Source: Pecten maximus
Lineage: Eukaryota
Length of the DNA stretch: 64,000 nucleotides
Reading direction: 5' to 3'
Assembly (NCBI RefSeq): GCF_902652985.1
Contig: NC_047025.1
Location: 13,950,001 to 14,014,000 of the forward strand
The first letter of the stretch is position 1. Every line of letters starts with the position of its first letter. This document shows, one piece after another, positions 1 through 62,123 of this stretch. A model generated the notes under the pieces. It made no database searches and was not told the DNA's origin. It saw nothing but the letters and a program-made list of their open reading frames with translations. Made by a program: the position numbers and the translations under genes.

Positions 1-2298
1 TGTTATCTTATGTATAGGGATAGACAGAAGTCATTGTCCTGAGATGACATTTATTAACATATTAACTATATATATATATATATACATATGTATATAACAT
101 AACAAGCATACTCAATACATATCTTATATGTGAGTTTTAATCCCACCAGCATTTTAATAGCATTTCGCTAAACTATTCCGTTACTCTATTGACTGACTCT
201 GACTTTTGCTTACAATTCATATTTGATATTTTCAAAGTTATACGATATGCGAGTTTTGGTCTTTTATTTTCCTTTGATTTTTGTCGGGCCTCTTATTGAT
301 GTTGCCAGTTTCCCTGATGGTCTTATATATAAATAACTCAACAATTATTGAAAAGTCATGAGAAACTGTTGCTGCAATCAGTGCTTATGTATAATATACT
401 TTATATTTTGATTATTTTTCATTTCATTTCATTTTATATTTTTGTTTTTCAATATTCTTTTGTACACAATTACAGTTGGATATACACACTATATTTCATA
501 TGTGATAAGATCAACCTGATAGATATTAGCGTTAAATGTTATTCACTGTGAATCTAATTAAGGGTAGATACTATTTATACTAGCATCCTATCATATATAC
601 TTTCATTCTAGAATAATTTGTTAAATAAATCTTACCAGTTACAGTTAAGAAGACAAAATTCAATACTAACAGGGCAGCTGGAAAAGCCTGTCATACTTGT
701 TTAAGATTAGTAAGGGTGGTCATTACGAATCGTATATAACTTCCTACGTCATGCTTCCTCCATTCTAAAGGTCATGTGAATTGAGACTAAAATCACGACC
801 ATCAACCACAGTCAATAAATGTGTCATTCTTAAGCATTCAAAGAAGAATCCATTAATTATATTTGGAAATGCCATTTAATTGTAAGCAAAGGAACGATAG
901 GTTCTCAAATGTTACCTGTAGTAGCCTTCCGCAATTTATACCAATTAGTAACACCCACAGCAAGACATTTCGAATAGATGTTCCATCCATATTATCTAAC
1001 TTAAGGCACTACATCGACTTATAACTTTTTCTTATGAAAGCATTATTGAATATAAGGACAAATCTTAATCTAGAAACTTTCTTACATTTTGTTTTGGTTT
1101 CATATGGAAAATGGAGTTTCCTTAAGGTAACGAACGTTGATGAAACCGGGTCCCTGTGTTATGTCTATTGATGCAATTTATTTTAATTATCAAATAATGA
1201 AATTAACGAGATTACAAATAATAAATGTATTTCGTTGATACGAAGGTCATCAAATAATATGCTCAGTGACAGATCAAAATTGATATTATCATTCAACATA
1301 TGTTATTTTAATTATTTTAAATGTCATCATGTGTCAAAATGACAATCCTCTCTTGTTACACTGGTTGCCGTGTATTAACTACGAGATTGACACCTGACAT
1401 AAATCAATGTTACATATCACTTGTAATCTGAATTGTTAACTGGTCAAATTTGACATTTAAATGGAATAATTAATAATTATTGTCAGAATACTTCCTTAAT
1501 GGGGTGCAATATATCCCGAAATATATATATCTAACTTTCACTAGTAATCATCATTTAACATATCTATTGACGACATTTATCTATTGAAATCTATGCATAT
1601 GTGCCCAATAATTTTTGTAGCCAAATGCAAATATATTGATTGCTTTGAATAGTTTGTGATAAACATAGCTGACTTAACAACTACAAATTGACAACAATGT
1701 TACAAAAAACGATATTATATATCAATTACATATCATTTCCACGCCGTTAACGAACCCAAAATTTAATTAAAACATCTGACTAAAAGCTCTACTGCATTAT
1801 TGACATTATTGAGAAATGTGAAGTATAACAAACGTCTGTTTTTGTGCTGCTTGAATGATTGCTGTTGCTTTTTCTATTTATTTTATAATATGAAATGATC
1901 GTGTAAACTTTTCCCCGTGGTTTGGAGCTTTCAAATAATTCATGGGTACTTTCGTGGTGTGTGGTTAGTCCATGCAATATGGTAATGTTAATGATACATT
2001 ATGATACAATATGTGTTGTATTTATATTCGTGGCTACATAGCAACTACATACTTATGTATATATATGCTGTGTTATTTTTTCTGCTTTGAAAGCGATTAA
2101 ACAGAAAATTTCTTACCAATCTAAAATGTATTAATAAAGGTGTTTAAAACGTCATGTCATTATTGGTACAGTATCATTTTCTGTTTATACTGTACGGTAA
2201 AATGAGAAATCTCATTAGGAGAATTCCCGGATATTTTCTTTTTGCAGGTTTTTTCTTATTGATATATTGTCGTGTTTCAGATGATCCGCGTTATCAAC

Positions 2299-5158
2299 AT
2301 GGAGCTGATAGGGGTGCATGTTGTTTTGTTTGGTTGCATGATGCTGTTACCAGAAGTCACGTGTCTGATACAGCCAATCAAAATGCCAGACGAGCTATCA
2401 TCATGCTATTCGGAGAGAACTTGGAATCTCAGCGTGACAGACTTTCCATCCCAAGATATCAACAGTTTCTGTATAAACCAGTACCTATGGAAAACCGCTG
2501 GGACCAGGTATCACGAGGAGGTATCTAATGAAACGCTGTCTTACATTGGGTCTCTATTTAGGAAGATTGCTGGAGATCATTGGAATCATCGACATAAAAG
2601 ACAACTCACATTGAGTTTATCGCGCAGGCGCAGAAGGGAAGTGAGAACATTGTCTCAGCAGGAATGGAATGATTTTGCAGGAAGGTTGAATTGGCTTAAA
2701 ATGCAAACGGTAAATACTACAAGCACACTACTTGCACCAGATGCAAAAGTTCGATTATAACCCTCTTTATTCAGATTCTGTCTGCATATTTGCGCCTATC
2801 ATTCTTACTCAGACTAAACGTAGTAATATTGGTACATTCATTAACACCTTTGTAAAATTTGAGTGGTTTAGCGGGTTTGGAAAATTAGTGCTACTACAAA
2901 ATAGTCAGTATATGTCATTAAAAAATAAGAAAACGTATATTTGCCCATTTATAATTTCGCTCAATATTATAAGCACACAGAGAAAAATATCATTTAAACC
3001 ACTTTAAACCAAGAGTTTACAGTAGTTTCTTTGTAATTTTCTTGTTGCAAAGGTGAAATGGAATGAAACCCACTTCTTCGACGATGATGGAAAATATGAG
3101 TGAATTTGGTTGGAAGTTACGTTTCTGCAATACCTCAACATATAAAGTGTAAACAGTCGCAAGGAAATCCTGATATATTTATCTGTATATTTCATATGTT
3201 TTTTTGTTTTTTTTACAATAATAGGACGTATATCCTAATCGATATGACGTCCTTGCCAATTTTCATCAAGGAATAGCGTCACGTTCTGCACACGGAGGGC
3301 CTAATTTCTACGGCTGGCACAGGATCTACCTTTTGTTGTAAGTATTATGTGTTAAGCTGCAGGGATTATCTTTTTCAGTTGAATATCCCCCATACATCGT
3401 GATGAAAAGCACAGATAAATACACAAATAAATAAAATGAAAAAAAAAAATCAATGTTTATTTTACATCAGCGATACGCAATACTTCAATAGCACGTTATT
3501 TAAAGGATTTAACGAATGGATGTTAAAGATAACAAAATACTCATGTATTGCAAAGTATATCTTTAAAAATTGAATATTCTAGCGATAGAGATGTCAAAAA
3601 CAGTCTTAATGTTTTTTCAGAATGGAAACCGCTCTCGGCATGGCTATACCGTATTGGGATTCAACATTCGACTACAAATTGGTCGATCCAACACGTTCTA
3701 TGGTCTGGAGCCGACATTATTTCGGAAACGGAAATGGGGTTGTAACCAATGGTCCTTTCAGGGGATGGAGAACATTTGGAAGACTACTGACAAGAAATAT
3801 AGGTAGTGACGGCTCACTTTTATCTCAACAAGTCATCAACCGCATACTGTCACAGACATATGGATTTCAGATCACGGAAGGTTCAGCATCGCCTATATTT
3901 AGTCTTGAGAGTGTTCACAATGCTCCCCATGCCTGGATAGACGGTGCTATGGGCATTTCAGAATGGTCAACAGCAGATCCAGTATTTTTCGTTCTTCACG
4001 CCCATATTGATTACATTTGGGAACAGTTTAGATATAGACAGAGACTACGGGGGATCGACCCTGCCGGGGACTACCCACATTCCACGCGTATGTTCCACGA
4101 ACGTATGCGAAGAGTTGACGGGTTTCCATCATTAACAAATTTTGATTGTTATAGTGATTTCTTTGGAAATCTGGTACAGTATGATCCACCTCCATCCTGT
4201 CCGATTTGTGGAAATCCATTAATGTTTCGCTGTGTAAGAGGTGAGTGCATCCCAACAGAAAATCCAGAACTTTTCCCATCACAGATAAACAGACAAATAG
4301 GATATGTGCCAGCCGAACCTTCAGTTGTTAGAAACCTACTCGCACAAACAGGAATACGTCTGACCGACCCAAGGGTATATAATAGGGCAAATCAACAACT
4401 AGTGCAAGACTCCACAGATTTCGTTTCTTCCACAAATAAGTAACATTCTGTTTAGAGGAAGGCGAAGTGCTAACACAGCCGGAAGGCAAAAACGGAGTCT
4501 TGGAAAAGCATCAAAAGAGGTAGAGAAGATTCTTAGCGATCACAATATAATACTACACAAGGACTATGAAAACACATTTGTGATAGACGGGATAAGAGAT
4601 ATGGATGCATGGTCATTTATTCCGGTAAAAATAATATACCAACGACCTTCTAAAGAAGTAGGTCAACAAATGAGATTAAATGTATTAGATAAATTATCAT
4701 TGAATACAGAATTAGAACTCGCAAAACATGAAAAGTGTATAATGTCGGATAATCGTACTTCTAGAGTCTATGTGCAATCTGACGGTGTGGATTATTCAGG
4801 ACGGTATAAAGATTACGCAATAGTTGACGAAACTGTCACTATGTCCACAAAAAAGACATACGTTGGCGTAAAGAATCCGGGAGCAGGTGACGCCACTGCT
4901 TATATCACTGCATATGACTCCTGTGGAAGAGCATGCAAGCCGATGTGTCAGGTGCCGCACTCCGAACCGATGGAGTATAAACCCTGCTCTGGTACAATTC
5001 ACATCACTGACGAATTCCCACTAATGTATTCCCCTTCTTTACTCGATGCCGTTGAAGAAATGCTGAATGAAGATCAAGCGCCATTGTCAATTATTGACAC
5101 TCCAATAGCTTTTGTATGCGATTATAACATTAAATGGCCCTGGGTTCTGAATAAATGA
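2299..5158 (+). CDS. Secreted tyrosinase-like protein (type-3 copper), about 686 aa if one +1 frameshift at ~4403-4440 is corrected
   Basis: Coding exons 2299-2709 (alternative in-frame ATG 2281), 3225-3337 and 3621-5158, with phase-compatible GT-AG junctions. Signal-peptide-like MELIGVHVVLFGCMMLLPEVTC; RRREVRTLS motif; CuA His in ANFHQG, SAHGGPNF and GWHRIYL; IPYWDS; CuB ESVHNAPHAW and DPVFFVLHAHID. Frame 1 stops at 4441-4443, while the next frame is open 4403-5158 and encodes the Cys-rich C-terminal domain (WSFIPVKIIYQRP...AYDSCGRACKPMC). Confidence 0.9.
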
Positions 5159-11957: not shown

Positions 11958-13991
11958 TTACACAGTGACATCGTCAGATTCCAATGCGATGTTGTAGAAG
12001 CCGTTGATTTCAGAAACTTTATCCTCCATGATTATTGGTGGGGTTTCAGGCTCAATTGGAGTGTCTACTACTGTCTTTTGTCCTTTAAAAGCTAAAGCAT
12101 ATATAAGACGATCATGAAAAATGGCGTCGTCTTTCCGGATGTAGGTAAATGTTTTCAGACACCGTTTCAATTCTTTTGGCAATTCTGCTTCGGGGATATC
12201 TTCCATCAGTACTACAATCAGATGCCGTTTCCGTTCCATTATACTTTGCTGGAAAGCTTCTTGGAACTCGTACATGCACCAGTGGCTATTAAGGAAGTAT
12301 TTTGAAAGGATTATGACGGTGTGGTGACTTGCTTCAACACTATCAATTACATTGTCAAATATGGTTTTGCCTGCAATGAAATCTCGTTGATGGAGGCAGA
12401 ACCGGAAATTATATCCGTTCGAACCCTTTCTATGTTCTTCCTCTTCAAGTGCTTGAAACGTTTTTCTCACCCATCCCTCATTTTCACTGCTGTACGAGAC
12501 AAATGCGTCATACAACTTGTTCTGATAACTCTCGTGAGGCTGACAAGGCAAGATCACGTGGAATCTCGTGTAGGTTAAGATTTGAATTTCCCGCCTGTAT
12601 CTTGTCATGACAATGATCAGCACAAGAAGAAAAACAACTACAACACTTAATATTATTATAGGTGCATATGACGTCATCTCACACGACAAGTCGGCTCTTG
12701 TCAAACTGACAAAAGTTTTTCCTTTGGCACTTTTAGGGGTAGCACATCTAAGATAGCGAAGGTACGCGTATGGAAAATATAACTTATTTTTCCAAACACC
12801 ATCATTTTGTACAAGATCAACAACACTTTCCATATCAGGGCTACAGTCACAATGGAATGGATTCCCTTCAAGGTTAACTATCAAAACCGATGAAAGTTTT
12901 GCTAATTTAGAGATATAATTTGTAGTAATCCTTGTTATATTATTGTGACTAACGTTGACATGAAGAAGTGGTAAGTCCCAGGCCACAGCCGTTGTATCCA
13001 AGTCAAACGTGTCTATATAATTGTAAGATAAATCCAGAAACTCCAGCTTAGGAAAATCCATCCACCATGTTTTAAATTTGGAATTCAGAAGCGTCATTCT
13101 CGTTCGAGACATATTGTAGACACGCACTTCCTTGAAAAATGAATTTTCTGTCAATACATCAATATGGTATCTGGACTTAGTGGCACTTACGCTTTGGTCG
13201 ATATATTTCAGTTTAAGGTACTCACACTTATATTGAATTTTTCTGTTTTCGTCTAAAAATGTTTTGCCAACGTCCATTATTTTATTTCCCAGATTTACAG
13301 GAGCAGTCGTGGATCCGTTTGAATTACTTGCTTCATCATCAAAGGAACCTAAAAAGTCCATTATATTGGTATCGTCGAATTTGTATGTGATGTTCCGGAG
13401 AGCGACATCAACGATGGTGTCTTCATGTCCACAAATGAAATCTTTCGGCATACTTGCAATATTACTCATATAAGTAACTAATCCAAATATGTCGATTGAT
13501 ATTTCACTGTCAACGAATTTCAGATCAATTAATTGGTCAGGGATTCCAGCTTTGGAACTGTTCTCTCCAAATGATGATTCAGAAAGGAAATCGGTGATTA
13601 AACAGTCGTGGACCTGCAAGCTGACAAGATGCAGTGCCTTGACTGGCCAGGGAATGGACACCTTTGACCAGTTAGAACAATACACATGAAAATGGTAGCG
13701 GAGTGTTGACGAGGAAATCCAGTCTCTCAGAGTGTCCAGTCGCCAAAGACCAGAATAAGCTGTTTCAATGGTGCATTGGAAATACACATTGTTATGGCCG
13801 ATTTCTCTCATCGTGCACATATCTTCCCAGCCAGCCGGCAGAAACTGATCCTTAGAAACCAATCTGGACACTGTTGTGATGTAGAAATCTGTCGAGTTTG
13901 AAGGAGAGATGGTTGTATTGGCAACCACAATTCCAGGGCACAGAAGAAAAATCGTTAGATAATAACTGAAGTATATGCCGATACATCCCAT
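11958..13991 (-). CDS. Toll-like receptor (signal peptide, few LRRs, LRR-CT, TM, TIR), 677 aa, single coding exon
   Basis: Hydrophobic N-terminus; LRRs FPKLEFLDLSYNYI, LHVNVSHNNI, IVNLEGN; LRR-CT NPFHCDC...LRCATP; TM APIIILSVVVVFLLVLIIVM; TIR box 1 YDAFVSYS, box 2 FCLHQRDFIAG, and SHWCMYEF. Confidence 0.95.
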   Translation of the reverse strand: MGCIGIYFSYYLTIFLLCPGIVVANTTISPSNSTDFYITTVSRLVSKDQFLPAGWEDMCTMREIGHNNVYFQCTIETAYSGLWRLDTLRDWISSSTLRYHFHVYCSNWSKVSIPWPVKALHLVSLQVHDCLITDFLSESSFGENSSKAGIPDQLIDLKFVDSEISIDIFGLVTYMSNIASMPKDFICGHEDTIVDVALRNITYKFDDTNIMDFLGSFDDEASNSNGSTTAPVNLGNKIMDVGKTFLDENRKIQYKCEYLKLKYIDQSVSATKSRYHIDVLTENSFFKEVRVYNMSRTRMTLLNSKFKTWWMDFPKLEFLDLSYNYIDTFDLDTTAVAWDLPLLHVNVSHNNITRITTNYISKLAKLSSVLIVNLEGNPFHCDCSPDMESVVDLVQNDGVWKNKLYFPYAYLRYLRCATPKSAKGKTFVSLTRADLSCEMTSYAPIIILSVVVVFLLVLIIVMTRYRREIQILTYTRFHVILPCQPHESYQNKLYDAFVSYSSENEGWVRKTFQALEEEEHRKGSNGYNFRFCLHQRDFIAGKTIFDNVIDSVEASHHTVIILSKYFLNSHWCMYEFQEAFQQSIMERKRHLIVVLMEDIPEAELPKELKRCLKTFTYIRKDDAIFHDRLIYALAFKGQKTVVDTPIEPETPPIIMEDKVSEINGFYNIALESDDVTV

Positions 13992-15661
13992 AATGCCTCT
14001 GATTAAAAGTGATTAACTGACAATCACGAAAACAGTTTGTTATCCTATTATCCAAGTATTCAAATATATAACATAACAGTGTTTTCGATAACACTGTCTT
14101 AAAAAGATGTGTATCGTTCACTTGAAACTCAAGATTTAAAGCGGTACTTCCTGTTTTCAATAGTGTAGGTATCTTTCACAATACGTAAGTCTCCCTTTAC
14201 GATCGCTGTGTCGATTACACGACTGTGCCTTTATCCATCATGGTGTTCTTTCTTTCTTTGATTAGTTGTCATTAATCCTTAGAACAACTAGATCCGGTTC
14301 TGTCCTCAATATGTCGACACATGTGCTAGCCGATTAACCTCGGTCTCTGGCTAACGATACGTAAACATCCCTGTCACTTTAATTCTGTTGAATATTCGTA
14401 GAAAGAACTCTTCCGCTATGTTCCATAGATGTGTTGACAAAGAGAATAAATAGGTTTTCCACGGAAAATAGGACGATCTGCTGAAACATTATCTGTATCC
14501 AATCAAACAAATCAGTGTTTTTCTTTTTACGTATATATTGCCGTGTAAGTATATCATATAAGCCATATTATCATATACACCTCTCTCGTTTCTCTTTACC
14601 CATGGGGGACCTAAACAAAGTTGTATATCAAATAAATTTATTTAGAGCTTTTATATAAATTGAGGATGATCAATTTTAGACTGACGAAGAGAATTTTTAG
14701 TCGTTAATAATTATATACTCCCAGGTGTTTTTTTTAATAAAAATCCCGTATGTCTTTTGAAGGAAATGCTATTGAATGTATATGAAGATTAACCCACAGC
14801 CGGCCCCTTACCTATGAGATGTACATTATCCAGCCTCGGGCATCGAGGAGTGTACCAGGTATTTCTCGTCATGTTATTTAGTGCTATTCCAATCAAAAGT
14901 GATAAATGTTGTATGTATACATGTAAATTTGTTGTCCGACGATTGTGTAAAAAAGACATAAGTGAATGACATGACTGAATACGTCTTAGCAACATTAAAT
15001 ACGGCTTTAGTAATAGATACAGTACATGGAGAATAATGAATACGACAGTGTCCCGTCCTCCCAGGACTTAAGAGATGCTAACGGCCAAATCTTTACAGCT
15101 TTGTCATCTTCACGAGTTCGCTTACTTGTTTGCCAATCGCTAATTGTTTTGAACGTATCTGCACGCGGTAGCAAAATTACAAATATCGATATAATTCAAG
15201 AAAATGTGAGCAGATGGGCAAGTTCGTATAGTGATATGTAGCATATATACCTCAATCATGATTGATATCCCGTATTGTCAATAAAAACCAGTACTGTTGT
15301 TTATTGACAACTACTAGAAGAAAAATGACCATGCATTCAAGAAACAAACAATTAACATGCAGAGTAAACAACTCTCTTCATTAGACAGGCGACTACACAT
15401 AAACATATTAAATGATTTAAGAGCCTTTCAATATAGAGAATTTTTACCTACCTACATGGAATCTAGGCTATTTACATAACGAATTATCAAAACGAAATAT
15501 GCCTGCTTGTACCCACTACATGATGCAATTGGAAAGTATTGCAGGTAATATCTTCGAATTAAGTGATTGCATCATCGATTGTGTTCTAGGCTGACCACAG
15601 AGAGGCACATTACTATACGGGCAAGTGTATAGTATAGGAATCTATCTATAGTTTGGTAGCA

Positions 15662-24497: not shown

Positions 24498-24620
24498 CTG
24501 CCTAACACTAGGATTAATTTCCCCAGAAAGTTCAAACTTTCTCTCTTTCATTATCACAAGAGCTTTCATAAGTTTATAAACTGTTAAGGTTGACTTGTCC
24601 TGGAGGATGTCATTCCCCAC

Positions 24621-27600
24621 TCAGTCCAGTATAACTTGGCCCTGTGAACCATCGGGCAACGTGTGTTTTTTTCCTTGAAGCATGTCATACTCTCGACGTA
24701 GGAATGCAAAAAGTAGATCTGTGACCAGGAAAATCTGATAAGAAAAATTATTCTTCATTAACTCTCACTGTTGTAACTTTTAAATGTTAATTTATTACAA
24801 ATATACATGTACATCAATATCTAAATGATCCATAAGTTTTTGTGATACTGTAAACATACATTACTTGGCGTAGTAAAATTTTAGCAGATATCCAAATTTT
24901 TACAGATCTGGATGAATTGGCATGCCAAAATTATTTGATATAGAAACAGTATGTAGAAAGTGCAATTAGCACAATCATGATTTAGCATAATGCTTCTAGC
25001 GCTTAAGTGCTAAAATAGGATTACCACTAAAATAAGGTTACCACTAAAATATGTATGTTTAAAGTATTCCAGAATTGTCTGAGTGGGAAGAGTGGTTTGT
25101 TTTTGTTTAACGTCCTATTAACAGCCAGGGTCATTTAAGGACGTGCCAGGTTTTAAAGGTGGAGGAAAGCCGGAGCACCCGGAGAAAAACCACCGGCCTA
25201 CGGTCAGTACCTGGCAACTGCCCCACGTAGGTTTCGAACTCACAACCCAGAGGTGGAGGGCTAGTGTTAAAGTGTCGGGACACCTTAACCACTCGGCCAC
25301 CGCAGCCCCTGACTGTGTGGGAAGAGTGGTAAGCACATACATTAGAGAGTTGATGGTTGGTGAGGTAAAGCCTCATTTTTTAGCATGCCATACACTGAAC
25401 TGTTTTTAATATTTGATGGGTGCCTCTACCCATCCTACTCAGATTATTTATCAACAGCCCTTAACTCTATTTATTGTACAGTAATAGACTTTTATAGAAT
25501 AAAAACTTTTGAAAAGATCACTTTTCCTGGTACCATGTATGTGTGCTATACTATTGAATGATTATCTGTACAAGTTCTTTTTCAGATTCATTTCAGTACT
25601 GTATTTATCCTATTACGGGACCAACACATCAAATTTGATTAAAACGGGAACTGCATGGGCTAGCTATTGCAGCCATGAAATAGTCACTGTTTGAATTTAC
25701 TCCTGAACTGATCATGAACTATATAAGGGTAGATTTATCAAAAAGGCATCATCGCCATCGTCTCTTTTAATTACTTGTTAGTAATTCAAATATGTTCAAA
25801 GTATGGTTCAATTTTCAACCTTGTCGGTTTTCTAACTTCAAGTTTCTTCATAAAAATAATCTGTATGTCAACACTTACCTCAGCTAATGAGAATGCCAGA
25901 GAAATAGCGAAGTAGAAGTTAGCATTAGCACTGCCAGCGTATAACCAGAGATGATGGAGGATCGGCGCAAACACAGTCGTACATATAAACATACAGGTCA
26001 CTACAAATGTGTTACGCATGTCTGAAACAAAGGAAAGATAAACATACAGGTCACTGCAAATGTGTTACGCATGTCTGAAACAAAAGTAGATAAATAGAGG
26101 TTACACAACGAGTGGTTGTTGGATATGGAATTTATTTCACACGAGTAAGTTATTTTTTAAAAGTTACAAAAGACACGAGCTTTAGCGAGTGTTTTTTGCA
26201 ACTTTTAAAAAATAACTTACGAGTGTGAAATAAATTCCATATCCAACAATTTCGAGTCGTGTGACCTGTTTCTACCACAATAATATCGGCTTGAATCAAA
26301 GGGAAATGTGGCCAAGTATAATTTCGCGTATGCAAATAAAGTGTACCGGTGACGTCTGGGACCCGGTGATGTGACGTCATTAGATTATTGATGACGTCAA
26401 TAACAATTGCAGCTTTGGTCAAAGTTCACCGTGTTAGCCAATCAAAATGCATACAGAGTTTATACCACGTGTGGTATAAACAGATTGTTAATCAACAGCT
26501 GTAATGATTAACTGATGGTCTGAGAGTTGAATAACACAGAGTATTGTTGTAGAAACAAGATTCATCAGTTTGGGGTTGATAATTACTTGGAAAGATGTTT
26601 ATAGTTATTCACTATTGAATAAATTTCATATCACAGCATAAACATGGAGTCAATAGTTTACCAGGTAAATATGATCGCCAACTTGGGTGTTTTGATTCAG
26701 TTTCAAATACATGAATCACCACATACACCGAGTTATTATATTTTTCAATCCTTATATTTACTCAATAGTTCAACTTATATTTACTCAATATTTCAACCTA
26801 TACATTGTATTTACTCATTACAATATTTACCTTAGCCCAATATTTCTTAAATATACACTTACATGAGAACACATGTTTCCATAAGGGTAGTAAACACAGA
26901 AAGAGCCCAACATCTGCAAAACTAGGGTAGGATTTGAATACCCCAATCAGGAAGATCAGCAGGTACAGCAGGAATACAGGATGTTCTCTACAACAGAATC
27001 ATATTGTTATATTACAACAAACAGGAATACAGGATGTTCTCTACAACAGAATCATATTGTTATATTACAACAGGATGTTCTCTACAACAGAATCATATTG
27101 TTATATTACAACAATCAGGAATACAGGATGTTCTCTACAACAGAATCATATTGTTATATTACAACAATCAGAAATACAGGATGTTCTCTACAACAGAATC
27201 ATATTGTTATATTACAACAATCAGAAATACAGGATGTTCTCTACAACAGAATCATATTGTTATATTACAACAAGCAGGAATACAGGATGTTCTCTACAAC
27301 AGAATCATATTGTTATATTACAACAATCAGAAATACAGGATGTTCTCTACAACAGAATCATATTGTTATATTACAACAATCAGGAATACAGGATGTTCTC
27401 TACTACAGATTCATAACGGGTTCCCATGCCATTTGCCCACCATACATCTTGCTGCCATATCGACAATAACAACATTAAAACCACTGTTCATTGTTTAAAT
27501 AACAACAATCAGGAATACAGGATGTTCTCTACAACAGAATCATACTGTTATATTACAACAAGCAGGAATACAGGATGTTCTCTACAAAAGAATCATATTG

Positions 27601-30600
27601 TTATATTACAACAATCAGGAATACAGGATGTTCTCTACAACAGAATCATATTGTTATATTACAACAATCAGGAATACAGGATGTTCTCTACTACAGATTC
27701 ATATTGTTATATTACAACAAACAGGAATACAGGATGTTCTCTACAACAGAATCATATTGTTATATTACAACAAACAGGAATACAGGATGTTCTCTACAAC
27801 AGAATCATATTGTTATATTACAACAATCAGGAATACAGGATGTTCTCTACAACAGAATCATATTGTTATATTACAACAATCAGGAATACAGGATGTTCTC
27901 TACAACAGAATCATATTGTTATATTACAACAATCAGGAATACAGGATGTTCTCTACAACAGAATCATATTGTTATATTACAACAATCAGGAATACAGAAT
28001 GTTCTCTACAACAGAATCATATTGTTATATTACAACAATCAGGAATACAGGATGTTCTCTACAAAAGAATCATATTGTTATATTACAACAAGCAGGAATA
28101 CAGGATGTTCTCTACAACAGAATCATACTGTTATATTACAACAATCAGGAATACAGAATGTTCTCTACAACAGAATCATATTGTTATATTACAACAATCA
28201 GTATTAGTCACTTCTCTGTAAGGTAGACATTTTCTGTCAGCACTACTGTTAATATTGGTAGCGAGTGTAAAGGGTAAACATCCTACTTGGTTACATATTG
28301 TTTTATTATTTATTTATTCAAACAAACTGAAGTATCAGGTGGCAAAAAAAAACAACATTCCTACTAATCCAGTAAATCACTGTGAAACAGCGAGACTAGT
28401 GGCCTTTTTGTTTATATAATCAAACTGGTTCCATCCTTTTTTTTTATAATTTCAATTAAAAACGGAGCGCATTTCTGGCCTTAATCTGAATGGACCAGCA
28501 GATGTTAATTCAGGCCTTGTGAAGGCTTATCAGAAAGTAGAATATGATTACTTGGTTTGTCCATATTTCATAAACAAACAATTCTGGTCTAAACAGATCA
28601 ACTGCTTGGATCATGATAAACAAATAATGGGCCTTGTTATCTTAAAAACTCTGCAATGTTCCATATAAGTAAATTGCTATGATTCTGTTCAATACACATT
28701 AATACTTTCGTGTAATAGCATGGTGAACTCTACCAACAATAGAAATTGTCTCGGAGGTCAAGGAGTAATTTAACTAGGAATTTATGTATTTAAATTCACT
28801 AAGTAGATAAAGGGAAACAACTCTGTGGTTGTGTCTATATCTACACGAACAACAGTTTATAATTCTGTCAAACTGTCAACAGTGTCAAGATGGATACTGA
28901 GGAACAAGTTTTTGATATTCTATATACACAAAGGGCAATAACTCTGGAATATATCTCATGCACATCTACATCAGATGATGCAAAACTCTACAAAATTTTA
29001 AAGAGTTGGAATGAAAACTGAGTAAGATGACAGTATGATTGCAACATCCAAAGGCAACATATTACTTCAATATTTTGGACATAAAACACTAACGTGGTAT
29101 CTAGGAGTGCTATGGGCAGTACACTTCACTGGTTAGTCAGAGTTATGGGCAGACACTTCACTGGTTAGTCAGAGCTATGGGCAGTACACTTCACTGGTTA
29201 GTCAGAGCTATGGGCAGTACACTTCACTGGTTAGTCAGAGCTATGGGCAGTACACTTCACTGTTTAGTCAGAGCTATGGGCAGTACACTTCACTGGTTAG
29301 TCAGAGCTATGGGCAGTACACTTCACTGGTTAGTCAGAGCTATGGGCAGTACACTTCACTGGTTAGTCAGAGCTATGGGCAGTACACTTCACACTGGTTA
29401 GTCAGAGCTATGGGCAGTACACTTCACTGTTTAGTCAGAGCTATGGGCAGTACACTTCACTGGTTAGTCAGAGCTATGGGCAGTACACTTCACTGGTTAG
29501 TCAGAGCTATGGGCAGTACACTTTACTTTTATTGGCAGTGCTATAGACAGAACACATTATTTTTTTTCGATTCAAAAGATCATTATTCACATAAGCATTG
29601 TGCTAGTTCATATAAATTTACTGTATTTACCGTATTTCGTGTTTGTGTTGTCTATTTTGATCACAACACTACTTGTTTCTTACCTCAGTTTGATGGAAAG
29701 TGGAACAGTGTAGATGATGACATTGATTTGGAACACACAGATAAAGAAAGTACGGAAATGCTCAAACATCTCGGTGAGGAAATACCAGAAAACCCCAAGG
29801 TTTGGTGTCAGATCTGGCACAGTCAACCTGTAAACAATGATACCAGGAAGAAAATGTAAACACAGCAGAAATACCAGATAATTGTCGAACTAACTGATGG
29901 CAGTTCAAGTTTTAAAGAATTAATCTGAATTCATCATAGTCAAATTCCTGAAACAATTTCAAATATACTACTAAAATTAATTCACAATTAATATCATGTT
30001 AGGTACAGGTTGTAGAAATACTCTCCCATCATATCAAACATGAAAACTCTTGTTAAATTATATGAAAAATTCCAAAAGAACAGTTTGATAGAAGTATGTT
30101 TTTGACAATATGTCTCAGTTCAAAACATCAACACAATCACTTAAACTACAGTCCTTCACAAAGGCTTGTATCAGCACTAGAGAATACAGACACACAAACA
30201 AAACCAGAATTCTCAAAATCACTAAATATGGGCACAAGAAGAATATGACCAGGTGTGATGCAAGGTACCGGGTATATCAAATTAAATACAATAAAGCCAT
30301 CAATTTCCTTCCTGTAGCAATATGTGTATGCTTACGTAAATCCATAGGTTGAGTAAAGGAATTCCCAGGACTGTTCCAAGTATGCGGATACTCCAATGAG
30401 AACTGCTAACCATGCCAGTGTGATCAAACTGATATGTGAGTAGCTAAGTAGGGCCTTGTGATCACTATAGGACTCGGAGTTAGGGCTGGAGCGCTGACCA
30501 TAGAATAGGAAAATAACAATGCTTAGGTACAAGTTCTGTATTTGAAAGTTCTTAGTATAAGCAAATGAAATACTTTAAAATCCTTGTACAACATTAATGA

Positions 30601-47520: not shown

Positions 47521-49751
47521 ATGTCCTACAGTCAAATTACGTTCAGTCGTGTGAGGGAATTTTTGATGAACGCGAACGATTCAAATCTTGAAAGAAGAAC
47601 TCCGATGGGTGCACCGCCAACTGTCATGATGTTTCAGTTTCCAGCTTCACCTAAAGACAATTACAACGAGGTCTATCCTGGAATAATCATTGGTGATAAG
47701 TAAGTTGATTTATTTGTCAACAAACACATTTTTCATACTATTGCAATTATTAAAAGTATGCTAATTAAAATTTGTTTTATTAATACATACTTGTGAATGC
47801 AGCAATTTGTTGCCCTTTTTGCAATTTGTTAAGTATTTGCACGTAAAGGCATGTAGATGTATAATCATGTAAAGGATATATAGAGATAAAATTATAAAAA
47901 TCACCAATAGATTAACTTTTCCTGTAGATATTCAGAATCTGGATCTACTGAATCATTAGTTTATTACTGATTTTGTTTCTATCCCTTTGTATATCCTTCT
48001 TGGTTTTCAAAAGAGAAAAAAATATTTTTCATTTACAAAACCAAGTTTATTTGATTGTATTACTGGTACTACTTATATAAAAAACAGCCAATATATATAG
48101 ACATTAATCTTTTTTGATTAACTACCCAATTCTATACTTATATTTTAGAGAATGTAGCAAGAATAAAAGACATCTGAAGGCTATAGGAGTGACACATGTA
48201 GTCAACTGTTGTCAAGGGATCAAACCGAACCAGATTAACACTGATGTCACTTATTTCCGTGACTCTGGCATAGCATTCCACGGAATACAAGCAATGGATC
48301 ATAGCTCCTATAATATGACTCCTCATTTCAACATGGCTGCTAAATTCATTGACAAAGCATTAGAATCTAATGGTAAGCTGTTGATGATAAAAATGTATTT
48401 GTATGTTCAGTTTCACATGGTATATACATCTATGGAGGCATGCATGGTGGTCTAGTGGTAGGACGCAGGGCTATGTGTCCGAAGGGCCGCTAGTTTATGC
48501 CTCAGCAGTCTGGTGCTGCATTGTATCCTTGGACAAGATACTTTACTCTGTTGTGTTCCTGTCAACTCAGCTGTAAATAACTATGTGGTAGGGCAGTGCA
48601 AGGAATGTCGTTTGTAAGCTGTTAGCGCCAAAATGGCAGCTCCGGCTGTATGCTCCCCAGGGAGTTGAGAAAGACATTGGCTGGTTGATAAAGGCCCAGT
48701 AACCACGGATAATGATTTGTGAACTGCCTTGAGACGGTTATGTTGCTGTGATATAGCAGTATATAAAACTATTAATTATCATTATTATTATATACAAACA
48801 AGATATAGAAAAGCCACACTTCAGTTTCATCTTCGTTTCCTTTGATTTGAAGCAACCCTAATGCTAGAATATCTGATGGGTTATGTAATCAATATAAGAG
48901 CAACAAAGACCAAAAGTAAATCATGATTCTACTAAGTTAAAAAAAATCACAACTGTTAATTGTTTGCTGTTGTTGATAGTTGGAAAAAAAAAATTCAAAA
49001 TATATGTTTTATAAGTATTCCACTACTGATTCCTACCTGGAAGCCAAAGAACTTCTTTGCAATGTTTTGCCCTTGTTTCTGCACCTGTTACAAAGTTTAC
49101 TGCTTATAGTCATGATTATTAGTTTATATTTTTTTCAATTTTAAAATATCTTTCATCTTTGAGGTTTGCTCTGATGCCTAAAAAGTTGAATAAGAATAAG
49201 ATTAAACCTTTTTGTTTACTGCAGACAAAATGTTTTGCAGAAAAACTATTAAAAAACAAAACAAAAAATTAAACATAATTATTTATTTTTAAATACATTA
49301 AAGTGTTATAAAAATATTACATAAAAAATGCTACATGGCAAACAGAGAATAAACAACTTCTTTCACAAAAATGCATGAAATACAGCTAATTAACACCAAC
49401 AAATTAAAGAAAATAATTATTAAATCCTAAATATGATAGCTTCTAAAACCTGAAAGTTAAATTCAACATATAGAGTCAGAATGCGATAGAATTTTTTTTC
49501 AGTATGCAATTAGTTATACATTCTTATTTATACTAATCAACTTATTTTCATTGACAGGTAAAGTCTATGTACACTGTATGATGGGAATAAGTCGATCTGC
49601 CACCATTGTTCTGGCTTTTCTCTTGCTGAAGAGAAACCTACGCCTGATGGAGGCCGTTAAGATGATCCGGGCCAAACGAGAAGTGTTTCCAAATGAAGGA
49701 TTTATCAGACAACTTTGTATACTGGAAAGTACTATACATGAATCACCTTAG
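47521..49751 (+). CDS. Atypical dual-specificity phosphatase (DUSP3/13/26-like), copy B, 198 aa
   Basis: Exons 47521-47699, 48149-48372, 49558-49751 (597 nt); same intron phases and 224-nt middle exon as copy A. NEVYPGIIIG, GVTHVVNC, AMDHSS, VHCMMGISRS, REVFPNEGFIRQL. Confidence 0.93.
48434..48791 (+). mobile_element. CORE-type SINE in DUSP-B intron
   Basis: A box TGGTCTAGTGG; CORE-like ttgtatccttggacaagatacttta; tail tgtgaactgccttgag...ataaaa...(ATT)n. Confidence 0.7.
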
Positions 49752-57426: not shown

Positions 57427-58725
57427 GTTCTAGCGACTTCGATAGGGGTAACCTATTCCCATCTGTGATGCCGAGGTTTTAATCATTTTAAATTATTCAT
57501 TGATCAGTGCCTAACAAATTTATACAGAAAACCGCATAGTCTTAACGCTACATATTCGATTATAATTCTAAAGCTCAATGTAAAATCTAAAAGACAGACC
57601 ATTAGTAAAGAATTTGACTAAAAGGTGATATATGTTCCATCTAAATTCTAAAATGCATCTGAATCAATTTTCTTTTAGGACCAAACGATTGATGGTGTGT
57701 CAAAGAAATGTTACGTAGGTGACCAGGCTATTCAGAATATGGACGCACTGGACATTCGACGACCCATAGAGCGAGGTATCGTGACTGACTGGGAAGCCAT
57801 GGAAACAGTATGGACTCACGTGTTTGATAATCTTAGCGTGAAACCTTCTGACAAAGATATTCTTTTAACGGAACCACAAATGAACCCAAAATCAAACAGA
57901 GAGAAAATGGTACAAATCATGTTTGAGAAAATCCAGCCCCGAGGAATGTATGTTATTAGCTCGAATGTGCTGTCGCATTATGCCAATGGACGGGTGTCTG
58001 GTCTTTTGATCGATTCAGGTTTTGAAGTGACGAGTGTTGTATGTATATACGAAGGATATGAAGTCACTCAATCCATGTTTAGATCCGATATCGGCGGTAA
58101 TGATATCACTAACTACTTGATCGAACTTCTTGGGAAAAGAGGCTTCGCGTTTACCACAGCGGAAGAAATAGAGGAAGTCAACATGATGAAAGAACGGTGT
58201 GCTTACGTTTCTACCAACCCTGAAGCGGAAAAAGTGGACGACATAAAAAAGGACTATACTTGTTCTAATGGAACAACTGTCTGTCTTGGAGAAGAGAGAT
58301 TCCAGTGTATGGAGGCCATGTTTGACCCGTCTCTGATCGGAAGTAAAGCATGCGGCATACACGAACTGATTCTTAAAAGCATAAAAGCATGTCCTGTCCA
58401 TGTGCGAGCAGATATCTACGTCAATGTGCTAATCTCAGGAGGCAACACGATGGTAGCAGGTTTAATTGATAGAATCGACCAGGAATTGAGGAAGGCATTA
58501 CCAGTTAACTTAAGAAAAAGAGTAATCGCACCTCCTGAAAGACTTTATTCGACCTGGATAGGAGGGTCAATTTTGTCAAGTCTGACGACAGCACAGAGTA
58601 TGTGGATGAGATTAGAAGATTACGATGAATTTGGACCTAATATAGTTTATGGGCCCGGATTTTGCCGGCGTCAATCCAGTCAGTCTGAAATCTGTTGCGG
58701 GATGTCTGGCAGAATAATGTCCTAA
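56841..58725 (+). CDS. Divergent actin-like protein, copy 1, 392 aa
   Basis: Exons 56841-56972 and 57679-58725 (phase 0, at the conserved actin intron position near codon 41/42). Motifs VVLDNGS..KAGYAG, PIERGIVTDW, LLTEPQMNPKSNREKM, IYEGY, SGGNTM, IAPPER, WIGGSIL. Confidence 0.92.
57385..57425. repeat. Poly-G tract
   Basis: More than 30 G in the intron of actin-like copy 1. Confidence 0.9.
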
Positions 58726-60739: not shown

Positions 60740-62123
60740 ATGATGTCGAGTTCTGAAGAAGAGGCTATCTGTGTTGTCCTGGACAACGGTTCCTATAGAA
60801 TCAAAGCAGGATTCGCCGGGGATGATGCTCCACGGAGTGTATTTCGGACATTAGTAGGAACGTCCTTGCATGAGGTATTGAGTTTGTTCAATTTTTTTTT
60901 ATACAGATGAATTTTTTTGTGAAATTAACTCAAAGAAAAGTTAATAAGACTAAAAACAAATACTAGATTAAATTCCTATAATCAACATCGAATCATTTTA
61001 CTTGTTTGTATTCGTTTTGAACGTAGTGTAATTTTGAGAATTTGCCAGCAAGGTATTTTGCTTATACTTCCAGAAATTAAGCGATAAAGCGAATATTACT
61101 GTAGCTATGCTAAACACGTACATTAATTACATGTTTATCGTTTTCACAGGCGAAATGTTACGTAGGTAGCCAGATCATCGAGATGATGGATGTCCTTGAT
61201 ATACGAAGACCGATAGAGCGAGGGATCGTTACTGACTGGGATGCGATGGAGAGAGTGTGGGATCACGTATTCTATGATCTTAGCGTGGAGTCTTCTGACA
61301 TTAATGTTCTTGTAACAGAACCATCTATGAATCCAAAGTCAAACAAAGAAAAAATAATACAAATTATGTTTGAGACATTCCAGCCGCAAGGAATGTATGT
61401 GATTTCGCCAAATGTGCTGTCACTTTTCTCTCCGGGACGCACCACTGGTCTCGTGATAGATTCAGGTTTTGAATTGACGTGTGTCGTGTGCATATATGAA
61501 GGATATAAAATAGCCCAATCCATACATAGATCCGATATCGGCGGTAATGATATCACTAACTACTTGATCGAACTTCTTAGGCAAACGAGGCTTCGCGTTT
61601 ACCACAGCGGAAGAAATAGAGGAAGTCAACATGATGAAAGAACGATGTGCTTACGTTTCTACCAACCCTGAAGCGGAAAAAGGTGGACGACATTAAAAAG
61701 GACTATACTTGTTCTAATGGAACAACCGTCTGTCTTGGGGAAGAGAGATTCCAGTGTATGGAGGCCATGTTTGACCCGTCTTTGATCGGAAGTAAAGCAT
61801 GCGGCATACACGAACTGATTGTGAAAAGTATCAAAGCATGTCCAGTAGATGTGGTGAGAGATTTTTACCAGAATGTTATTATCACAGGAAGCAACACGAT
61901 GACATCAGGTTTTGTGTCTAGACTAGAACGAGAATTACGGGCATTATTGCCAGCAAGCAAATGCATCAAAGTCGTCGCTCCCCCTGAAAGACACTGCTCA
62001 GCCTGGATAGGTGGATCGATTTTAGGGAGTCTTTCTACGACAGGAAGAATTTGGATAACACCTGCAGACTACGACGAGTTTGGACCTAATATAGTTCACA
62101 ATCCGGACTTTCCCCTGCATTAG
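60740..62123 (+). pseudogene. Divergent actin-like copy 2 with two +1 frameshifts (young pseudogene or consensus error); about 368 aa if corrected
   Basis: Exons 60740-60874 and 61150-62123. One extra base at ~61579 and one at ~61681 relative to copy 1; no other stops in the repaired frame; [14 protein letters not shown] and WIGGSIL intact. Confidence 0.75.

Follow-up and report, generated by a model that had tools for sequence, protein, structure and literature searches.

How one acceptor is chosen among 22 nearly identical copies is the question raised by PIGU in the scallop Pecten maximus. PIGU is required for anchoring proteins at the cell surface. The gene lies on the minus strand of a 64,000-nt stretch of contig NC_047025.1 (positions 13,950,001 to 14,014,000), here called the window, and a 53-bp minisatellite covers its intron 9/exon 10 boundary. 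The array is a further case of the described mirage minisatellites, tandem repeats whose units lie across an exon-intron boundary, and is not shown to be a splicing VNTR (variable number tandem repeat). It is most likely without selected function. New here is a survey of junction-spanning duplications in 636 scallop introns. The features concerned, in window coordinates, are as follows.

24621..36211, minus strand: PIGU coding region, 12 exons, 439 aa; all 11 introns are GT-AG
29684..29827, minus strand: PIGU coding exon 9, with a phase-2 donor; intron 9 has 2696 nt
26969..28201, minus strand: 53-bp minisatellite over the intron 9/exon 10 boundary, with 22 acceptors (21 decoys and the authentic one)
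27414..27501, minus strand: foreign insert in unit 13, an arm of a dispersed repeat that can form a hairpin; it takes the place of about 10 unit bases
26863..26987, minus strand: PIGU coding exon 10, 125 nt long, with the authentic AG at 26989-26988; the last repeat unit supplies its first 19 nt
25879..26021, minus strand: PIGU coding exon 11; it encodes Asn387/Asn389, which align with the human Asn pair that contacts glycosylphosphatidylinositol (GPI)

The acceptor array of PIGU

The spliced coding sequence (12 exons, 36211 down to 24621) is 1320 nt long, and its translation is identical to P. maximus XP_033755506.1. The label exon 10, used in the earlier note on this DNA, is thus right as a coding-exon number. 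XP_033755506.1 is itself a gene model and therefore gives no independent proof of acceptor choice. The family assignment comes from PF06728 (PIG-U), with four exon matches above the cut-off, all inside the window, and from human PIGU (8imx/7wld), matched with an E value of 2e-107.

Tandem Repeats Finder gives a period of 53 across 26969-28201. Where the earlier note had described about 22 near-identical acceptors before exon 10, 22 are found, each followed by AGAACAT on the minus strand, with the acceptor G running from 28165 to 26988. The repeat unit is made up of 34 intron and 19 exon bases and so spans the boundary as mirage units do. Among 21 spacings, 19 measure 53 nt; the remaining two are of 41 nt, from a unit 12 nt short, and of 129 nt, from the foreign insert. 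Comparison of full-length units with the consensus gives 0-3 differences per 53 nt, and 7/21 match it exactly. There are 12 distinct unit types, and units 9 and 13 have two derived bases in common, a sign of exchange among units.

The unit is private to the PIGU locus and homogenised within the cluster, as in mirages. A 29-nt piece of its intron part is matched exactly 16 times across the 918-Mb genome; each of these 16 matches is inside the array, and the reversed control has none. An origin of the unit from a dispersed satellite or transposon is ruled out by this result; only the insert in unit 13 is dispersed. It adds about 86 foreign bases and was missed by the earlier note. Scoring 40 of 911 candidates gave 63 matches to the element, the best ones 95-100% identical. 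Elsewhere in the genome it is a high-copy, long palindrome, a perfect hairpin with arms of about 80 bp.

Only copy 22 reads on through exon 10, as the earlier note had held. In the phase of exon 9, every upstream copy runs into an in-frame stop, 20/21 after 10 codons and 1/21 after 6. A stop well upstream of later exon junctions usually marks an mRNA for nonsense-mediated decay (NMD). Two later junctions follow well downstream of every decoy stop, so decoy products would be NMD targets by this rule. Decoy use would also cost PIGU its C-terminal part, encoded by exons 10-12. In the alignment, scallop N387/N389 are the counterparts of human N383/N385; they are encoded by exon 11 and would thus be absent from any decoy product. 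In human PIGU, a protein with 12 membrane helices, N383/N385 make the contact with GPI (PMC9098846).

Choice of the authentic acceptor

Acceptors were scored with a crude matrix built from general frequencies and with a separate matrix trained on 639 scallop acceptors. The AG is kept in 22/22 units, and crude scores between -5.5 and 0.1, with the real acceptor at -1.6, mark the decoys as usable cryptic sites. With this matrix, 16/21 decoys score equal to the real acceptor, and four score higher or about equal. With the trained matrix, the exon 10 acceptor is the weakest among the 11 of PIGU and stands at the 12th percentile of the 639. Whether tolerated arrays generally have a weak acceptor was also considered. 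Both large exon-rich cases stand at the 12th percentile, whereas the exon-11 acceptor reaches the 82nd and small cases follow no single pattern, so this is a lead only.

RNA structure was rejected as a discriminator: the same short hairpin covers the putative branch point in the real unit and in the decoys alike. The predicted unpaired probability of this branch point is 0.01-0.07 in 21/22 units and 0.24 in the insert-bearing unit. In-frame micro-exons, made from a decoy and an internal donor, were rejected as well. The five GT sites inside the unit score -4 to -10, compared with +0.9 to +8.2 for the 11 real donors, and none is usable; micro-exons made with the first three would bring in 10, 22 or 25 nt and break the frame in each case. 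Sequence, folding, and internal donors do not single out the real site, and the downstream context therefore remains as the difference.

All copies represent one weak acceptor, and the site is probably activated across the exon. The activators would be the exon-10 donor, at a distance of 125 nt, and the part of the exon that begins after base 19; this part adjoins the last copy alone. The spliceosome likely uses this last acceptor, and decoy products would go to NMD. Exon definition, which the earlier note had proposed, may reasonably be inferred as the basis of the choice. Use of decoys 21, 20, and 19 would give exons of only 178, 219, and 272 nt, so nearness or exon enhancers would have to decide, with no hard size limit.

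RNA evidence comes from contigs of 4 of 24 listed runs (four studies; one recorded as RNA, three guessed), aligned to 24500-27075. Such contigs drop rare forms. The exon 10-11 joint uses the downstream acceptor copy (26021) in 4/4 runs. A 910-nt contig of run X10 spans exons 10-12 and leaves the aligned stretch exactly at the last exon 10 acceptor; its upstream 352 nt are taken as exons 9 and earlier. Contig depth over 26994-27075 is 0 in 3/4 runs. No decoy junction is present among those listed for the four runs, a negative that covers the forms contigs retain. The contigs fit use of the last site and are too coarse to speak against a leak. DNA runs of three studies contain 65-80% of the words of 25800-27075, a range that covers the last two units only.

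Junction-spanning duplications in scallop genes

The survey covers 19 myosin and 18 dynein gene regions (37 regions, 1.31 Mb), with exons mapped using homologues. Introns were called by spliced alignment for 639 of 839 adjacent exon pairs, and three doubtful donors were dropped, leaving 636. Junction windows copied on the intron side only were counted and compared with the result of the same test deep within the introns of these genes. Local duplications cover about 30% of intron positions. The counts by number of exon bases included are given below (n = 636; expected numbers in brackets).

0 exon bases: donors 32 (18.6), acceptors 21 (19.8), acceptor observed/expected 1.06
4 exon bases: donors 29 (17.9), acceptors 17 (18.9), acceptor observed/expected 0.90
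8 exon bases: donors 26 (17.0), acceptors 10 (18.0), acceptor observed/expected 0.56
12 exon bases: donors 25 (16.0), acceptors 6 (16.8), acceptor observed/expected 0.36
16 exon bases: donors 18 (15.4), acceptors 4 (16.0), acceptor observed/expected 0.25
19 exon bases: donors 14 (15.3), acceptors 3 (15.8), acceptor observed/expected 0.19

The fall of both curves is due in part to the fact that a unit must exceed its exon share, which makes the donor curve the fair control. Donors and acceptors differ at 12 exon bases (p = 0.0009; by gene 12 vs 1, p = 0.003). The by-gene test gives 11 vs 3 at 16 bases (p = 0.057) and is not significant at 0 or 4 bases. At least 10 extra copies occur at 13 donors vs 1 acceptor (of 636 each). 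A control made without junction calls gives 36 vs 13 of 786 exon cores (p = 0.0014). These figures apply to two gene families, with several margins tried, cases clustered in few genes, and 200 pairs uncalled; at least one acceptor mirage lies outside the mapped exons. Mutation bias may be an alternative to selection for the asymmetry. The PIGU array is of the exon-rich acceptor type, which is scarce in the sample (about one acceptor in 600). The depletion of this type agrees with the earlier view that decoys are not harmless by default, and the array is probably an uncommon survivor, tolerated through exon definition and NMD. No report on donor/acceptor asymmetry or on molluscan mirages was found in literature that excluded most subscription papers.

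A first, myosin-only survey (9/328 junctions vs 8.5 expected; 0/154 acceptors) was replaced by the homology-guided calls, since its score thresholds left out weak acceptors. A 52-bp array resembling an acceptor mirage was rejected; it is followed by no mapped exon and so is not a mirage.

Donor arrays with 10-40 copies are many, e.g., of 39 bp (regions L009-L010), 37 bp (L023), and 36 bp (L102-L106). Across the surveyed regions (L003-L042 and L047-L136), cases cluster in few genes, some near contig ends. One dynein gene on contig C13 has two acceptor mirages, at about 6,847,100-6,848,500 (L100) and 6,816,300-6,816,650 (L097). The former (71 bp, about 19 copies, about 49 exon bases, a weak acceptor) is the closest local parallel to PIGU; the latter is 76 bp with about 5 copies. 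A myosin III-like gene (C18, L025 about 1130-1535) has an acceptor array of about 29 bp in which AG is followed by donor-like GTAA, like stacked recursive splice sites. A dynein gene on the alternate contig C29 (L137-L139) differs from C13 (L097-L101) by several multi-kb insertions. A 52-bp intronic array counts 6 copies on C13; on C29 it counts 74 or more and reaches the contig end.

Two further PIGU junctions are duplicated, both missed by the earlier note.

25985..26090, minus strand: duplicated intron 10/exon 11 acceptor, two copies, period 53, each with about 37 bases of exon; use of the upstream copy would cause a frameshift
35765..36165, minus strand: duplicated exon 1 donor, two copies, period 205, covering the last ~85 exon bases and the intron start

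No joint at the upstream exon-11 acceptor copy is present among the 15 of 35 joints listed. With an AG upstream of it and its donor intact, the second copy of exon 1 could serve as a frameshifting pseudo-exon. Duplications thus affect 3/22 PIGU junctions, compared with about 0.55 expected (P about 0.02, a value inflated because the gene was picked for having an array).

Intron 9 contains a second array away from any junction (29109-29527, 33 bp, 12.7 copies). Dispersed repeats in intron 11 (25093-25309) and intron 10 (26090-26560) have very high RNA contig depth, summed in the former to as much as about 10^6, so both are abundant in transcripts genome-wide. Long plus-strand open frames run over the acceptor array because the repeat has no stops on that strand. 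Other open frames in the window may represent a tyrosinase (2148-5158, plus strand), a single-exon Toll-like receptor (11958-14012, minus strand), a dual-specificity phosphatase exon (48108-48455, plus strand), and two actin-like genes (57679-58725 and 61114-62123, plus strand), the second apparently split across two frames.

Competing explanations and meaning

Mirage minisatellites are described in amphioxus, in Adh3, the globins BflGb6 and BflGb9, troponin C, and PGBD5, where regular splicing is reported as undisturbed, with no aberrant mRNA (PMC3087553, PMC3902484). Like the PIGU array, they are composed of homogenised tandem units across an exon-intron boundary, with the AG kept, and in BflGb6 the unit likewise joins an intron end to an exon start. 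The PIGU array is found in a mollusc and has 22 copies, whereas BflGb6 of the cephalochordate has 3-6. Length variation and splicing of the amphioxus mirages were tested by PCR, and the PIGU array is known from the assembly and contigs. By anatomical criteria the PIGU array is a mirage minisatellite, and undisturbed splicing is only partly shown.

In human F7, a 37-bp VNTR in intron 7 has 5-9 copies, of which the first donor is used, as explained by 5'-to-3' scanning; the spare sites are functional when tested (PMC1557585). Both F7 and PIGU have identical splice sites repeated by a minisatellite, and only the site adjoining the intact exon is used, in PIGU likely so. In F7 this is the first site, on the donor side; in PIGU it is likely the last of 22, on the acceptor side. 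Intact protein comes from the last PIGU copy only, not the most upstream one, so a first-come rule would fail. Classic experiments with duplicated splice sites gave opposite results, as summarised in the Discussion of PMC1557585. Human CBS 844ins68 duplicates the intron 7/exon 8 junction, with the distal site strongly favoured and normal mRNA made (PMC2630376, where the sites are named donors, though a title cited there says 3' splice site). It is one polymorphic insertion with two copies, in contrast to the expanded array of PIGU. Splicing-associated tandem repeats (spl-TRs) are defined by a measured association of length with splicing (PMC10078293). Like the PIGU array they lie at a splice site where length could change splicing; their association is measured, and the PIGU array is without one.

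The array is a locus-born minisatellite, probably a tolerated by-product of repeat instability without selected function. It may have begun as one tandem duplication between two CTG microhomologies; CTG flanks the array on both sides, which fits such a microhomology-mediated start. Expansion by slippage or unequal exchange would have followed, and later turnover appears to be recorded by shared variants in distant units and by the captured repeat fragment. Tolerance is favoured by junction-spanning duplications with 4 exon bases at 29/636 donors and 17/636 acceptors, and the amphioxus mirages and distal-copy use in CBS 844ins68 may be taken as precedents. Several observations weigh against tolerance. 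Acceptor duplications with at least 12 exon bases are depleted (6/636 vs 16.8 expected), and the class is probably not neutral. The possible exons of 178, 219, and 272 nt are not too long for exon definition, and distance alone may not explain the choice. Run X10 has a depth of 15 over 26994-27075, compared with about 22 over the exons, and the contig behind it is outside those listed; collapsed pre-mRNA or DNA from 22 copies could explain this, and decoy use could likewise. Moreover, contigs lose rare forms, NMD would hide decoy products, and the exon 9-10 joint is not seen directly, as exon 9 (29684..29827) is beyond the aligned stretch.

Measurable use of the nearest decoys, with long alleles sending more PIGU pre-mRNA to NMD as a splicing or expression quantitative trait locus, is rather unlikely. 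The acceptor depletion grows with exon content (1.06 to 0.19), which suggests that such decoys are often used; the X10 depth over the last units points the same way, and length-dependent splicing repeats are common in humans (PMC10078293). Against such a leak, decoy junctions are absent from those listed for four runs, and in three of these runs the units are free of contigs. Decoys that stay silent are what one would expect in a survivor of selection, and no length alleles are seen in the one assembled haplotype. Searches of the genome assembly with PF06728 and the 29-nt unit piece found no second PIGU haplotype. The earlier proposal that array length tunes PIGU is not supported so far, given an amphioxus class without splicing disturbance and a scallop genome in which repeats are common, and neither length alleles nor decoy junctions are seen in the single haplotype and the contigs of four runs. 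An artefact of assembly, with the array or most copies missing from the animal, is very unlikely. Copy number is known from the assembly, not from reads, and the 6 versus at least 74 copies of the 52-bp array make lengths haplotype- or assembly-dependent in this assembly; yet collapse or stutter would not be expected to give 12 unit types that share derived variants, together with an insert and a unit of 41 nt, and the DNA runs contain most words of a range that covers the last two units only. A selected regulator, maintained so that unproductive splicing sets or switches the dose of PIGU, is extremely improbable. In its favour, duplication affects two acceptors in a row in a gene for an essential subunit, and the duplicated junctions of the gene exceed expectation. 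Set against this are the inflated P value, comparable arrays at dozens of unrelated junctions, and the homogeneity of an array that carries a stray repeat fragment and is thus probably young or still turning over.

A wider proposition links the locus to the survey. The scallop would purge duplicated acceptors by exon content and tolerate donors, as an upstream acceptor with its exon start is really used. The PIGU array would be one of the few survivors, close to the limit, and would owe its tolerance solely to the dependence of its weak acceptor on the downstream exon, with length alleles shifting PIGU between productive and NMD-bound mRNA. This proposition is unlikely.

With tolerance as the preferred reading, the single locus alone is a clean but known oddity. 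It is also a natural experiment, in which 22 near-identical 3' splice sites stand in a constitutive essential gene and the last transcribed one is likely used. Scanning and first-come rules would then fail, and exon definition becomes directly testable. The donor/acceptor asymmetry that scales with exon content would, if it extends genome-wide, indicate at the level of the genome that the choice of 3' splice sites is under selection.

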